64,000 bases of DNA from Luteolibacter sp. (GCA_030696085.1 JAUYNL010000046.1:4696-68695); one strand, 5' to 3'; shown: positions 56,125 through 62,048, counted from the stretch's first letter. Numbers and translations are program-made. The notes: generated by a model not told the origin, from the sequence alone.

Positions 56125-56393
56125 GCCGGGAGCTTGAGCCAGGACCGTGGCGGCGTCGAAAACAAATCACTGCCAATGAAGCGCGGACTTCAGACAACGT
56201 TTTTCATCGCGCGGCTTTGGAGGCGTTTCGTGCGTAAGACGACCGATCAGGCGATTCCGCGCCGGTGACAAGTACGCCCACAGGCCGAATCGCGCCTTGC
56301 CACCCGCGAAAAAACCCGCCATAGCCCCGCCCCCGGCGGCTTAAGTAGTCGCCGATGGTCACAGACCGCCGCCACATTCCAAATCATCACTCC

Positions 56394-58238
56394 ATGTCCC
56401 TGAAGATCCGCAATCTCGCCATCATCGCCCACGTTGACCACGGCAAAACCACGCTCGTCGACCAACTCCTCCAGGCCGGTGGCACCTACCGTGAAAACCA
56501 GGCCACCACCGAGCGGGCGATGGACTCGATGGACCTCGAGCGCGAAAAGGGCATCACCATCAAGGCCAAAAACACCGCCATTCTCTGGAACGGCTACACT
56601 ATCAACATCGTCGATACTCCAGGCCACGCCGACTTCGGCGCGGAGGTGGAACGTGTGATGAAAATGGTCGATGGCGTGCTGCTCGTCGTCGATGCCTCCG
56701 GCGGCCCGCAGGCGCAAACCCGCTTCGTGCTGCGCAAGGCGATGCAGGAGGGCCTCAAGCCGATCGTCGTCATCAACAAGATCGACCGTCCGCTCGCCGA
56801 TCCGCTCAAGGTTCACGACCAGGTGCTCGAACTCTTCCTCGACCTCGATGCCGATGAGGAACAATTCAACGCCCCGTTCTGTTATGGTTCCGCCCGCGAC
56901 GGTTATTTCATGAATCATCCGGACGACGAACGGAAAGACTGCATCCCGCTTCTCGAAAAAATCGTCAAATACATCCCGGAGCCGAAAGCCGATCCGGCGG
57001 CGCCGTTTTCCATGCTCGTTTCCAACATCGAGTGGGACGACTACGTCGGCCGCGTCGCCATCGGCAAGGTGCTTGGTGGCAGCGTCACCAAGGGCGATAC
57101 GATCTGGCTGCTCCGCAAGGACGGCACCAAACAACAATCGAAGGTAATGAAAACCTTCACCTATTCCGGCCTCGCCACGGCGGACTCCGAAGGCTGCGGC
57201 GCGGGCGGCATCGTCGGCATCGCCGCCGGCATTGAAAACATCGACATCGGCGAGACCCTCGCCGCCAACAGTGACATGGAGGCGCTTCCCTTCGTTGCCA
57301 TCGATCCGCCAACGGTTTCGATGCAGTTCTCCATCAACGATGGCCCGCTGGCAGGCAAGGAAGGCAAACACGTCACGTCCCGCGCCATCCGCGACCGCCT
57401 GATGCGCGAGTTGAAAACCAACATCTCGATCCAGGTGGAGGACACCGATCTGTCAGGCGTATTCAATGTTTCCGCCCGCGGAGCCATGCAGATCGCCGTG
57501 CTCGTCGAGCAAATGCGCCGCGAGGGATTCGAGGTGCTGGTTTCCCGGCCGGTGGTGATTTTCCGCCGCGACGACGCGGGCAAGCTGCTCGAGCCCTTCG
57601 AAACGCTTTATGTCGAAGCTCCGGGCGACTACACTCAGGGCATTCTCAAGATCATGATGAACCGCAAGGGCATCATGGAGCACATGGACACCGAACCGAG
57701 CGGCCGCACCTTCATCCAGGCTGTCATCCCCACCCGCGGCCTGATCGGTTTCGAAACCGAGCTCGTCAACCTGACGTCCGGCCATGGCATCATGAGTCAC
57801 CTTTTCAAGGAATACGGCCCGCACGCCGGCGAGATCCAGAACCGCACCACCGGCACGCTCGTTTCGATGGATTCCGGAGTGGCCACACCCTACTCGCTGC
57901 AAATGCTCGAAGACCGCGGCATCCTGTTTGTCGCTCCCGGCGATGCGGTTTACGGCGGCATGCTCGTTGGTGAAAACCCGCGCGTCGGCGATCTTCCCGT
58001 GAACCCGGTGAAGGAAAAGCACCTCGACAACATGCGCTCCTCCGGCAAGGACAAGACCTCCAAACTCACGCCAGCCGTGCGCTTCTCACTGGAACGCGCC
58101 ATCGAATACATCGACATCGACGAACTCGTCGAAGCCACGCCGAAGAACATCCGCCTGCGCAAGCGCGTGCTCGATGCGAACGCCCGCAAGCGCGCCGCCA
58201 AGGGAGCCACCGTCGAGGATCGCAGCAACCGCGGCTGA
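56394..58238 (+). CDS. typA: translational GTPase TypA/BipA
   Basis: Start re-picked to ATG 56394: [26 protein letters not shown] (G1), [19 protein letters not shown], and a BipA-specific C-terminal domain. Confidence 0.95.
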
Positions 58239-58763
58239 TTACGAGGGTGAAAATTCAAGGCCGGAAAACCTCGCCGGCCATCGTCCGCCTCAAGGCGAAC
58301 CGCTCTGGCCCGCCGTGATTTCTTCTCTCCGCACAAAGTGGCTGGGACTCGCAGCCCCAATCCGTCTGGGTTAGGGGTCACTCTGTCCCCTTTCCTTGTG
58401 TCAGCGGCCGGAATCTCACCGGGGCACGGAGCTTCTTCGCGGTTGGGGGGTGCATTGAATGAACGCGAATGAGCACGGGCTGCAACCTCAAGCGGCCTTT
58501 CAACCCCGATTGCCTCAGGTGGGGTTTGATCGCGAAGAAGGTGGTCCGATTGCCGGACGCGGCGCGAAAAATTCACTGGCAAGGAGGTTTGTAAGCCGAC
58601 ATTCTCTCTCGGCGGTGCCAGAAAAGCCACAATCCGGGCGCAGCCGATTCAATTCTAGTTTCAGTTTCACCTGTCCAGTCCCACCTGTCCCAGGAAAGCT
58701 CCTGGCATTTTGAAAAAACTCCGATTTGACACGGTGAATCCAAGATGTTCAAATGAACCCGCA

Positions 58764-59957
58764 ATGACTCTCAAGACAATCGATCTTTTCGCGGGAGCCG
58801 GTGGCATTACCGAGGGGTTCAGGCAAGCTGGATCTGCCTGCCTTTTTGCCAACGATTTCAACCCTTACGCTTGCGAAACCTTTCGGCTCAACCACCCCGG
58901 GGTGGAGATGATCTGCGGGGCGATCCAGGATCTCGATGCATCGGCGATCCGGAAATCTCTTGCGATCCGGAAGGGCGAATTGGATGTCCTCGTTGCAGGG
59001 CCGCCCTGCCAAGGATTTTCAATCAATGCGCCGGAGCGGTTCCTTGAGGACCCACGAAACTCGCTTTTCAAGCATTATCTCCGTTTTGTGGATGAGTTTG
59101 CTCCGAAAACTTTTCTGTTCGAGAACGTCCCTGGAATGCTCTCCTTGGGCGGTGGAAGAATTTTCGACACCATTCTGAGCCAAATGCGTGAGCGTGGATA
59201 CCGGGTCAGCGCGCGCATTCTGCTCGCGGCCCATTATGGAGTCCCGCAAGTCCGCTGGCGCATGATCATTCTTGGATCTCAATTGGGCGAAGCACCCGCA
59301 CATCCCAAACCCAGCCACTACTACGATTGCCGCCCCAACTTCAAGGGAGGGGCTACCATTGCAACAAGGCTGGTTCCATTTGATCAACTTTCTCTCAAAA
59401 CGGCAGTCACCCTCGCGGACGCGATTTCCGATCTACCTCCCGTCGAGGCGGGGGGAGGCGAGGAGGTGATGGCCTATGGAAAGCGGACTCCCAAGTCGAG
59501 CTACGGAGAATCCATGCGCGAAGGCAGCAGGGTGCTTTACAATCATACCGCGAACCGGCTTTCCAAGATCAACTTCGACAGACTGGCGCACATCGCCCCG
59601 GGTTCCGCCTGGACAAGCATTCCGCATGCGCTGCTTCCCGCAGGAATGAAAAAGGCACGCACCAGCGATCACACGATGCGCTACGGCCGGCTTTCCTGGC
59701 AATCGCTGGCGGGCACCATGATGACGAAATGTGATCCCCATTGGGGAGCGGTCTTTCACCCTGGTCAGGATCGGACGTTTACGGTGCGCGAGACCGCGAG
59801 GATACAGAGTTTCCCGGATAGTTACCGCTTCCTCGGTCCCCGGGCCGCGCAGTATGAGCAGGTTGGCAACGCCGTCCCCGTTCTGTTGGCGAAGGCCATC
59901 GCGAACTCTCTGGCCAAGCACTTGGCCGCAACCACTCCTGAAGCACGATGCCTCTAA
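58764..59957 (+). CDS. DNA (cytosine-5)-methyltransferase
   Basis: IDLFAGAGGITEGF (motif I), LVAGPPCQGFS (motif IV), ENVPGM (VI), QVRWRMIILG (VIII), TVRETARIQSFPD (IX), GNAVPVLLAKAI (X). The track start (58710) is TTG. I prefer ATG 58764. Confidence 0.92.
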   Translation: MTLKTIDLFAGAGGITEGFRQAGSACLFANDFNPYACETFRLNHPGVEMICGAIQDLDASAIRKSLAIRKGELDVLVAGPPCQGFSINAPERFLEDPRNSLFKHYLRFVDEFAPKTFLFENVPGMLSLGGGRIFDTILSQMRERGYRVSARILLAAHYGVPQVRWRMIILGSQLGEAPAHPKPSHYYDCRPNFKGGATIATRLVPFDQLSLKTAVTLADAISDLPPVEAGGGEEVMAYGKRTPKSSYGESMREGSRVLYNHTANRLSKINFDRLAHIAPGSAWTSIPHALLPAGMKKARTSDHTMRYGRLSWQSLAGTMMTKCDPHWGAVFHPGQDRTFTVRETARIQSFPDSYRFLGPRAAQYEQVGNAVPVLLAKAIANSLAKHLAATTPEARCL

Positions 59958-60884
59958 GATACTACGAATGCTTCGGCCACCCAATCGACTCGCCGCAGTT
60001 AGGCGAGGCTTTCCGTAAAAAAACGTTGCCCATTTGTCGGGGGAACGTGCTCGAAGTCTTTTTCCAATGGGATCATTAATGGAGCCTGTACCTTGGTGAA
60101 TCCGACCAACAGCGTTCCCGTTCCATGCTGTCCCAAACGTCTTTACGGCGATGATTTCCGTGTGCTCCAGGATGTCGTCCGTGCCGCGTGGGGTGAGGGT
60201 GTGCCGCTGATTCCTCAAGGAGGTGATATTCCGCTCTCCGGAGATTTCGTGATCCCGTTCGGGCAAAAACAAGGTCAGGAAATCCGTATTGCTTACAAGG
60301 AACTGAAGAGTGCTTCCAAATTCTCAATCGATTGGATTCTGGCCAAAGTGGATGGGAACCGGAATCTTGAGGGTTTTGTTGCGGTGGAAGTCCAGACCAT
60401 TGACACCACCGGCAACTACCAGTGGCCGTTCCATGAACTTGCGGCTGTGCATGACCCGGCAACGGCCATGGCGATGAAGCTGCCCAAATCCAAGGCTTCC
60501 AGTCTGAATTTTGAGAATGTCAATAAACGCATCCTTCCGCAGCTCATTACAAAAGGTCATGTATTGAGAAGGGAGCAGCTTTGCACAAAAGGGCTTTTCT
60601 TTATTTGTCCAACTGCGGTGCATGACCGGATCCTGACTCGGGTCGGCAAGTTGGATGACTATCCGATCCAATCGGGCTCAGTGACGTTTCTATCCTATTC
60701 CGTGAATCAGGATTCCAGAATGGTTCCGAAATCACTCATTCTCGACCACCAGACAACTACCACGACGGATCAGCTCTCACTGGCCTTTTCATCTCCGAAG
60801 TATCTGCCTCCTCAAGGGGTTTATGAGGAGGCGATCCGGAGAGCTTTGTCGAAGCGGTTCAATCAAACTCCGTGTGGATCCTGA
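59948..60884 (+). pseudogene. type II restriction endonuclease gene (NotI-like by recollection) interrupted by a 1-nt frame change at an A7 run
   Basis: ATG 59948 overlaps the methyltransferase stop (ATGCCTCTAA). That frame reads MPLRYYECFGHPIDSPQLGEAFRKK and stops at 60077-60079. The +1 frame is open from 60003 and reads ...KKRCPFVGGTCSKSFSNGIINGACTLVNPTNSVPVPCCPKRLYG... through to 60884 (track ORF 60093..60884). The frames meet at A7 (60017-60023). A PD-(D/E)XK-like core is present (FSIDWILAKVD...VAVEVQTID). Confidence 0.65.
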
Positions 60885-61061
60885 TGTTCTGATGTAACAC
60901 CATGTCCAGCATGTCTTTGAGCATCAGGCCATTGCGCACACCCAGAGGATTTGATACTGCTTGCGCCATGAGGACTCTCGATTGACCGGCAAACGGCAAT
61001 CACGCTGCCGCGCAACCCGGGGCGGTTGACAGCGCCCACGCCCGCCGCTTTGCTCGCCGGG

Positions 61062-62048
61062 ATGTCTCCCGATTCGCAACAGGACTTCGCGCTCGCGTTT
61101 CTGAGCATTCTCTTCGAGGGGGCCCCCTTCATCCTGCTGGGCACCCTGGCCAGCGGCTTCATCGACATCTATTTGCCGGCCGGAACGATGGACCGCTTCC
61201 TGCCGAAAAACCGCAAGCTGGCGATCGCGGCGGCCGGCTTGTTAGGCGCGGTGTTTCCGGTCTGCGAGTGCGCGGTGGTGCCGGTGATCCGCCGCCTGGT
61301 GAAGAAGGGCCTGCCCGTTTCCTGCGCCATCACCTACATGCTCGCCGCTCCCATCGTGAATCCGATCACCGCGTTGAGCACCTGGAAGGCATTCCAGGGC
61401 CAGGGCGCGGCGATGATGACCAGCTCGCGCCTGCTGCTGGGCTTCCTCATCGCGGTGGCCGTGGGCCTGATCGTCTCCCGGCTGCCGCTGGCGATGGTGC
61501 TCAAGGAGAAGCTCGTCGAGTCGCTCGATGAGCCGGAGCACCATCATCCGCATGAGCCGCACATGCACGAGCACGGGGATTGCCGCGAACATCATTCCTG
61601 CGACTGTCATGGAACCAAGGACGATCAGGATCACCGCCTGGTAGCGGCCTTCCGCTCCGCGATGAAGGACTTCGTGGATGTGGGCGTGTATTTCTCGATC
61701 GGTGTCTCGATCACCGCGCTGTTCAACACCGGCATCGCGCCCGGCGCGGTGTGGCTCGACAGCCTGGCGGGAAACCTGGTGGGAGCTCCCGCCGCGCTGA
61801 TGGCGCTGGCCTTCATCCTGAGCCTGTGCAGCACCTCGGACGCCTTCATCGCCGCCACCCTCGACAAGTTCGCCTGGGGCGCGAAACTCGCCTTCCTCAC
61901 CTTCGGCCCGATGATGGATGTGAAACTGATCTTCCTCTATCAGACCGTGATGCGGAAAAACTTCATCATCGCGCTGGGCCTCGGATTGTTCCTCGCCATC
62001 GGCGCGATCACCATTTTCTGGCAACACCTTGTTTTCCAAGTGAAATGA
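61062..62048 (+). CDS. permease (PF03773-type, large subunit of a two-component membrane permease), His/Cys-rich loop
   Basis: Multi-TM protein. It has a CECAVVPV motif and a cytoplasmic loop EPEHHHPHEPHMHEHGDCREHHSCDCHG. There is an ATGA overlap with the downstream gene. The track start at 61026 is TTG. I prefer ATG 61062. Confidence 0.75.
   Translation: MSPDSQQDFALAFLSILFEGAPFILLGTLASGFIDIYLPAGTMDRFLPKNRKLAIAAAGLLGAVFPVCECAVVPVIRRLVKKGLPVSCAITYMLAAPIVNPITALSTWKAFQGQGAAMMTSSRLLLGFLIAVAVGLIVSRLPLAMVLKEKLVESLDEPEHHHPHEPHMHEHGDCREHHSCDCHGTKDDQDHRLVAAFRSAMKDFVDVGVYFSIGVSITALFNTGIAPGAVWLDSLAGNLVGAPAALMALAFILSLCSTSDAFIAATLDKFAWGAKLAFLTFGPMMDVKLIFLYQTVMRKNFIIALGLGLFLAIGAITIFWQHLVFQVK

Follow-up and report, generated by a model that had tools for sequence, protein, structure and literature searches.

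An extra A in a homopolymer splits a NotI-family endonuclease gene beside an intact C5 methyltransferase in a Luteolibacter genome

Introduction

When a restriction endonuclease gene changes reading frame at a run of identical bases, is the gene dead, switched off for the time being, decoded by a slip of the ribosome, or merely misassembled? The question is raised by a restriction-modification (R-M) locus in a 64,000-nucleotide stretch of DNA from Luteolibacter sp. (GCA_030696085.1 JAUYNL010000046.1:4696-68695; the whole stretch is referred to here as the window, with positions counted from its first letter), which belongs to a metagenome-assembled genome (MAG) of 110 contigs that is ~96% complete. 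Here an endonuclease gene (R, 59948-60884) that overlaps the end of a DNA methyltransferase gene (M) is divided between two frames at a run of seven A's (A7). An earlier note, made from the sequence alone, had named four possible explanations: phase variation, a decayed R gene beside an orphaned methylase, programmed +1 frameshifting and a sequencing error. Of these we favour a decayed R beside a methylase that is becoming an orphan; sequencing error is essentially excluded, whilst phase variation and programmed frameshifting are unsupported. Specifically, we consider it probable that a real and recent slippage insertion, fixed in the sampled population, inactivated R beside a retained M.

Results and discussion

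The endonuclease gene is divided between two frames

The start codon of R (ATG, 59948-59950) overlaps the methylase stop codon (TAA, 59955-59957; ATGCCTCTAA), the overlap of the two genes being 10 nucleotides, and opens a short open reading frame (ORF) of 43 codons which terminates with TAA at 60077-60079. Within it a T and a C enclose a run of precisely seven A's at 60017-60023. Beyond a TAG at 60000-60002 the +1 frame meets no stop from 60003 until the TGA at 60882-60884, and deletion of one A from the run gives, on in silico translation, an uninterrupted ORF of 311 amino acids. All of this agrees with the description in the earlier note; the two frames are, however, jointly open over 60003-60076, wider than the A run alone, and not only across the run as had been claimed. 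The features of the R locus are as follows.

59948-60884, + strand: R gene, NotI-family type II endonuclease, two-frame pseudogene (311-amino-acid read-through; Pfam, profile and fold matches to NotI)
59948-60079, + strand: 5' fragment ORF of 43 codons, of which 1-25 are the native N-terminus (MPLRYYECFGHPIDSPQLGEAFRKK) and the next 18 are out of frame
60017-60023, + strand: A7 run with one extra A, the frameshift site at R codons 24-26 (CGT AAA AAA A CGT TGC)
60024-60884, + strand: codons 26-311 of R (3' part), read in the +1 frame, with the Cys4 cluster (C27, C34, C47, C60/61) and D128...E147-x-Q149

The frameshift and its position relative to homologues are observed directly. In the homologue alignment frame 0 matches up to ...AFRKK and the +1 frame from RCPFV... 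(RCPFVGG) onward, so the switch must fall inside or beside the A run, and the break lies between K25 and R26, one codon ahead of the first invariant cysteine (C27). Codons 1-25 of the short ORF agree with the nearest intact homologue at 24 of 25 N-terminal positions, which exceeds chance; the segment 59948-60016, whose homology the earlier note had regarded as decisive for the status of the upstream ORF, thus has evident homology with the N-terminal ends of intact relatives. In the +1 frame there is no ATG, GTG or TTG before TTG 60093 and GTG 60096, and public gene callers (including that of the Joint Genome Institute, JGI) annotate a 262-amino-acid product starting at GTG 60096. Members of the family read R in one uninterrupted frame and the extra A at 60017-60023 splits it here: the R locus is a NotI-family member by descent and a pseudogene as it stands.

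The read-through protein belongs to the NotI family

The earlier note had likened the repaired protein to the NotI family. Searched against Pfam, the 311-amino-acid read-through protein matched PF12183 (NotI) above threshold (32.2 bits, cut-off 22; profile positions 105-189 of 238), the 263-amino-acid downstream ORF alone scored 30.4 bits, and in a six-frame search of the whole genome with PF12183 the R locus was the only match. In a collection of 5.8 billion protein clusters the read-through protein had 1308 homologues, more than 1,000 of them full-length relatives of ~305-311 amino acids with which it aligns over its whole length; among the matches listed nearly all have 295-311 amino acids and span 95-99% of the query, some bear the name 'NotI family restriction endonuclease' and most come from Verrucomicrobiota MAGs. 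The best of them (P0001) shows 94% identity with the read-through protein. Profile comparison linked the family to NotI (PDB 3bvq) at E 5.9e-9 (profile positions 6-227, NotI residues 16-268), in an alignment that takes in both the cysteine cluster near the N-terminus and the FS(I/F)DW ... (V/L)E(V/I)Q core. Residues C27, C34, C47, C61, D128, E147 and Q149 are invariant in 63 diverse homologues, with D128 (FSIDW) and E147/Q149 (VEVQ) aligned to NotI FSFDW and LEIQ. An AlphaFold2 model of P0001, an intact homologue and not the window product, reached a predicted local distance difference test score of 90.8, and in a Foldseek search of the PDB with this model the NotI chains were the sole matches below 1e-3 (E 7e-15, TM 0.68/0.61). 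The NotI-family assignment of the read-through protein is secure, and the family named in the earlier note proved correct.

NotI itself carries a structural Cys4-Fe motif, and in its PD-(D/E)XK motif Q replaces K (PMC4081073). By analogy R is predicted to be a PD-(D/E)XQ endonuclease with a putative N-terminal Cys4 metal site. All of the family-invariant residues of R are kept in the window, with the four Cys codons separated from the start codon by the frameshift. The likeness to NotI (3bvq/3c25; PF12183) thus extends over the Pfam match above the gathering score, the profile, the fold, the Cys cluster, the D...E-x-Q core and the adjoining methylase, whilst the read-through protein differs in being ~17-20% identical to NotI and ~75 residues shorter (311 versus 383 amino acids), in belonging to a large uncharacterised subfamily of ~305 amino acids found chiefly in Verrucomicrobiota metagenome genomes, and in that its gene is broken. 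An intact member of this subfamily would be a reasonable candidate in which to look for a new or known GC-rich specificity. Of the candidate GC-rich sites counted in the genome, GCGGCCGC has an observed/expected ratio of 0.79 and CGGCCG one of 0.77, neither being notably avoided.

The seventh A recurs in distinct consensus sequences

The evidence on the length of the run comes from assembled contigs, that is, from the consensus of this genome and of four other public metagenome assemblies which share the typA-M-R-permease context. Three of these are 100% identical to the window, over 6958 nucleotides (L035; JGI 3300037043), 6199 nucleotides (L036; Logan SRR13727540) and 3849 nucleotides (L037; Logan SRR11844738), and the fourth is 99.987% identical over 7905 nucleotides with one single-nucleotide polymorphism (SNP) (L039; JGI 3300037048). 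All five carry A7, and there is no A6 consensus among them; support for A7 comes from no fewer than two distinct consensus sequences and from two assembly pipelines, so that its reproducibility across assemblies is likewise a direct observation. A pattern scan of JGI metagenomes for the site with 5-9 bases in place of the run gave no matches and carries no weight in either direction, near-identical records seemingly lying outside what it covered.

Homopolymers were also audited genome-wide by codon usage, for runs with 60 or more coding codons to either side; the audit is a lower bound and would miss breaks near gene starts, including the break in R. Runs inside uninterrupted coding frames numbered 127 for A/T7, 24 for A/T8, 31 for G/C7, 7 for G/C8 and 3 for longer G/C. 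Apparent frame changes were found at 3-5% of runs in the well-sampled A/T6 and A/T7 classes, much as at random positions (3%), with higher figures, from small counts, at the rarer long G/C runs. Fifteen such changes fell at runs of at least 7 bases, most of them plainly gene boundaries (ribH/nusB, nuoB/nuoC), and within its scope the audit gave no sign of a general homopolymer problem in the genome assembly.

One other candidate homopolymer frameshift emerged from the audit, in the same genome and outside the window: a C8 run with an apparent frame change (C89:39943-39950), which separates a 238-codon signal-peptide ORF from an RHS/YD-repeat ORF of ~850 codons and at which one base more or less joins the two without stops. 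These could be two separate genes instead of one split gene.

In a collection of 15 billion proteins no intact protein 100% identical to the window allele was found, and the 90% cluster of this allele consists of two truncated calls of 262 amino acids and two diverged intact alleles.

The insertion is specific to this lineage and appears recent

Compared across relatives, as the earlier note had proposed, the intact alleles encode R in a single frame and the A run is not conserved, being lineage-specific to the window allele. At the site the two nearest intact alleles, L001 (92% nucleotide identity) and L038 (94.5%), read CGT AAA AAG CGT and CGT AAA AAG AGT, three orthologues from the genus read GCG AAG, GCA AAG and TTG AAG, and AGTCGG is likewise found among relatives at the position of the run. 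Over a 2078-nucleotide alignment of the M-R pair the window and L001 differ by exactly one gap, the extra A, and the 3' part of R contains no stop or further indel; the absence of secondary decay is plain from the alignment. Downstream of the break the ratio of nonsynonymous to synonymous substitution rates (dN/dS) of R versus L001 is 0.097, close to that of M (0.094), and when substitutions were polarised with outgroups the window branch showed 22 synonymous to 7 nonsynonymous changes and the intact L001 branch 12 to 6. R would thus appear to have evolved under purifying selection throughout almost its entire divergence, and the lesion to be recent, since there is no second lesion, dN/dS is like that of M and the window branch is no worse than the L001 branch. 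The sole difference between L039 and the window is T>G at 60211, a nonsynonymous change (Ile88Ser) inside the R remnant, which as one data point is suggestive of drift.

Probable loss of R beside a retained M

The sequence of events that we propose begins with the horizontal acquisition of a two-gene type II R-M unit, with the C5 methyltransferase upstream and the NotI-family endonuclease downstream. A synonymous AAG>AAA change at the Lys24-Lys25 codons would have created A6, and replication slippage, the probable origin of the insertion, would then have added one A to give A7. From the true start the gene would now yield a peptide of 43 residues, 25 native and 18 out of frame, leaving the remaining 286 codons of R without a proper start. 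Restart at TTG 60093 or GTG 60096 would give a product which, as the earlier note had pointed out, lacks three upstream cysteines; these are C27, C34 and C47, all invariant in the 63 homologues, and with three of the four invariant cysteine ligands missing the product is, by analogy with the Cys4 site of NotI, probably inactive. The endonuclease would be off and the methylase, which is intact, presumably still active. Losing R whilst keeping M would carry no cost to the host and would be the usual first step toward an orphan methylase.

How do the alternatives compare? That the true sequence is A6 and the gene intact might be expected insofar as indel errors classically arise at homopolymers and the genome, a MAG, is in 110 contigs. 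We nevertheless regard assembly error as a very unlikely source of A7, because the same run occurs in two JGI metagenomes and two Logan Sequence Read Archive runs obtained with different assemblers, one of them with an independent SNP, because nearly 190 other runs of at least 7 bases sit in intact coding frames of this genome, and because no identical intact protein exists in the 15-billion-protein collection. Still less probable is that the upstream ORF is irrelevant and that translation beginning at TTG 60093 or GTG 60096 supplies a shorter, functional nuclease. A GGAG lies 8-11 nucleotides upstream of these codons and the JGI gene calls give a product of 262 amino acids, against which homologues are uniformly ~305-311 amino acids long with an MPL...CPF...C...C...CCP N-terminus, the invariant C27, C34 and C47 lie in a region that aligns to the NotI Cys cluster, and the shorter calls in relatives trace to a mis-called start (P0038), a nonsense mutant or a deletion. 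Programmed recoding, by which a +1 ribosomal frameshift on AAA-AAA-A or slippage of RNA polymerase would yield the full-length enzyme, perhaps at a deliberately low level, also seems highly improbable. Its attractions are the lack of decay in the downstream R frame and the perfect re-pairing available to a P-site tRNA-Lys, which could move from AAA 60020-60022 to AAA 60021-60023 and so restore the native ...RKKRCPF.... Yet all relatives examined encode R in one frame and the frameshift is not conserved, the A-site codon is ACG, which is neither slow or hungry nor a stop, no RNA structure follows the run (87 nucleotides, z = 0.19), and the sole Shine-Dalgarno-like element, GAGG 10-11 nucleotides upstream, is not conserved (GAAG in L001). 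Efficient transcriptional slippage, for its part, needs runs of ~9 or more.

Slipped-strand phase variation, with the run as a contingency tract that passes between A6 (ON) and A7 (OFF) at high frequency and a population that happened to be caught OFF, would agree with a frameshift whose position coincides with a homopolymer close to the 5' end of R, where one step restores the frame, and with a pristine downstream frame of low dN/dS. Phase-variable R-M genes with simple-sequence tracts are known also in Helicobacter, Neisseria and Haemophilus; seven A's are short for a contingency tract. For other bacteria there are documented phase-variable R-M genes whose tracts are of homopolymer or dinucleotide type, poly(G) of 6-11 or poly(GA), and the phase-variable Mycoplasma systems share with the window a homopolymer frameshift near the 5' end of an R-M gene (PMC9465063). 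They differ from it in that the window A7 is short, is not conserved in orthologues and is invariant among five assemblies, no differences in tract length being met among samples at the consensus level. The tract is moreover absent from the nearest intact alleles as well as from the genus orthologues, and in the genome long G/C tracts are not over-represented and no further gene is clearly split at a homopolymer. On balance we think phase variation unlikely. Several considerations nonetheless weigh against a recent, fixed loss of R: the public assemblies may partly share read sets, only two distinct consensus sequences being proven; contigs hide minority variants, leaving room for a possible A6 subpopulation; the inactivity of the truncated product is argued from the NotI analogy; and the lack of decay with purifying-like dN/dS is equally expected of a switchable or leaky gene that is still used, so that it does not prove the lesion recent. 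There is accordingly an outside chance that the A6/A7 run works as a switch that can be reversed, or as a site of leaky +1 slipping, in an environmental Verrucomicrobiota population. If so, a pristine endonuclease would be held in reserve behind a constitutive methylase, with restriction only in rare revertants, and the total absence of decay in the R remnant would be explained.

For a recent loss of R there are counterparts among relatives and in other bacteria. In L010, a Logan contig from an 80%-identical relative, positions 1-140 carry TGC>TGA at the codon of the invariant Cys34 (GGP*TKAF), and the public gene call therefore begins downstream at MINGACTL. In L011 (1595-2170; also in L012 and L013) an in-frame deletion of ~115 codons joins ...CPFV to AVEVQ..., with loss of the Cys cluster and D128, whereas the adjoining methylase is intact; the deletion is present on 7 contigs from several runs. 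Together the nonsense change and the deletion, which are independent lesions, suggest that loss of R with retention of M is recurrent in this R-M family. Downstream of the deleted R of the L011 type comes a giant gene (>6,000 amino acids). Two shorter proteins were rejected as further frameshift alleles: P0023 (271 amino acids) is a nonsense mutant whose contig also starts inside the gene, and P0038 (243 amino acids) reflects a start called too late in an intact gene, the full R frame of the 305-amino-acid class at that locus (L040, 2310-3232) running from an ATG which overlaps the stop codon of the methylase. R of L040 has an A7 run of its own, in frame (ACA AAA AAA TTC) and at a different position from the window run. 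Elsewhere, R has reportedly been lost or eroded beside a retained methylase in the Helicobacter pylori M.Hpy99III homologues (PMC8706393), and R-M erosion is described in Mycoplasma agalactiae (PMC9465063). The locus is like these orphan-methylase systems in that M is intact and R broken by a small frameshift, and unlike them in coming from an environmental Verrucomicrobiota MAG instead of a host-adapted pathogen and in the great recency of the event, which has left the R remnant perfect in all other respects.

Inactivation of R here is an ordinary event in R-M evolution and the gene a new broken member of a known family, and the finding leaves current understanding unchallenged. It captures R-M decay in nature, and cleanly, at its first step, a single slippage with M retained and no other damage. 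Its value lies chiefly in annotation: the locus should be labelled a frameshifted NotI-family pseudogene beside an active-looking C5 methylase, and not a 262-amino-acid 'NotI' protein.

The adjoining methyltransferase and the island

The neighbouring features are as follows.

58764-59957, + strand: C5 cytosine DNA methyltransferase, intact, 397 amino acids from ATG 58764 (alternative upstream start TTG 58710)
58239-61025, + strand: R-M island of lower G+C, between typA (56355-58238) and a permease operon (61026 onward)

The methylase matches Pfam PF00145 with 235 bits over profile positions 1-323 of 324 and TIGR00675 (dcm) with 214 bits, and its translation shows the motifs FAGAGG, PPCQ, ENV, QxRxR and GNAVP. 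Its dN/dS, given above, is against the L001 allele, and an identical methylase protein is encoded on the four other assemblies. The best matches among solved structures are the catalytic domains of eukaryotic DNMT1 (E ~1e-52), in alignments that cover residues 3-317 and 64-386 and include the target-recognition region, whilst the bacterial M.HaeIII and M.HhaI match at ~1e-29 in the N-terminal half only; the window methylase can be described as a DNMT1-like bacterial C5 methylase. With a full-length PF00145 M upstream and an overlapping R downstream, the locus has the M-R arrangement of a type II operon. The 10-nucleotide overlap of M stop and R start (ATGCCNNTRA) is found likewise in L001, L011, L014 and L038, and its conservation in these relatives suggests that M and R are translationally coupled. 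No sigma-70-like promoter was found in 58200-61100 and no C-protein gene is present. A tandem 14-nucleotide direct repeat (CAGTTTCACCTGTC / CAGTCCCACCTGTC) lies at 58662-58689, ~75 nucleotides upstream of the methylase ATG.

The 2.8-kb R-M segment has a G+C content of 50-55% versus 60-65% in its flanks. An orthologous M-R pair occurs in 3 of 36 relatives from the genus, and in those three the pair and the permease gene sit on different contigs, whilst in another relative (G005) typA and the permease gene are ~800 nucleotides apart with unrelated DNA between them. The low G+C, the rare and differently placed orthologues and the adjacency of typA and permease in G005 fit a mobile, horizontally acquired island. 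A search of the island borders for flanking repeats or a tRNA-type target found only short, chance-level repeats.

Across the whole genome several palindromes other than the candidate GC-rich sites fall far short of a maximal-order Markov expectation, a sign of strong avoidance. A recognition site for R cannot be read from them, the strongest avoidances not being attributable to a recently acquired R-M island. They comprise GTCGAC (0.10), CAGCTG (0.17), CTCGAG (0.27) and CACGTG (0.29), to which GTAC (0.29), GGCGCC (0.35) and CTAG (0.38) can be added, and hint that the genome has been exposed, in the past or at present, to other restriction systems.

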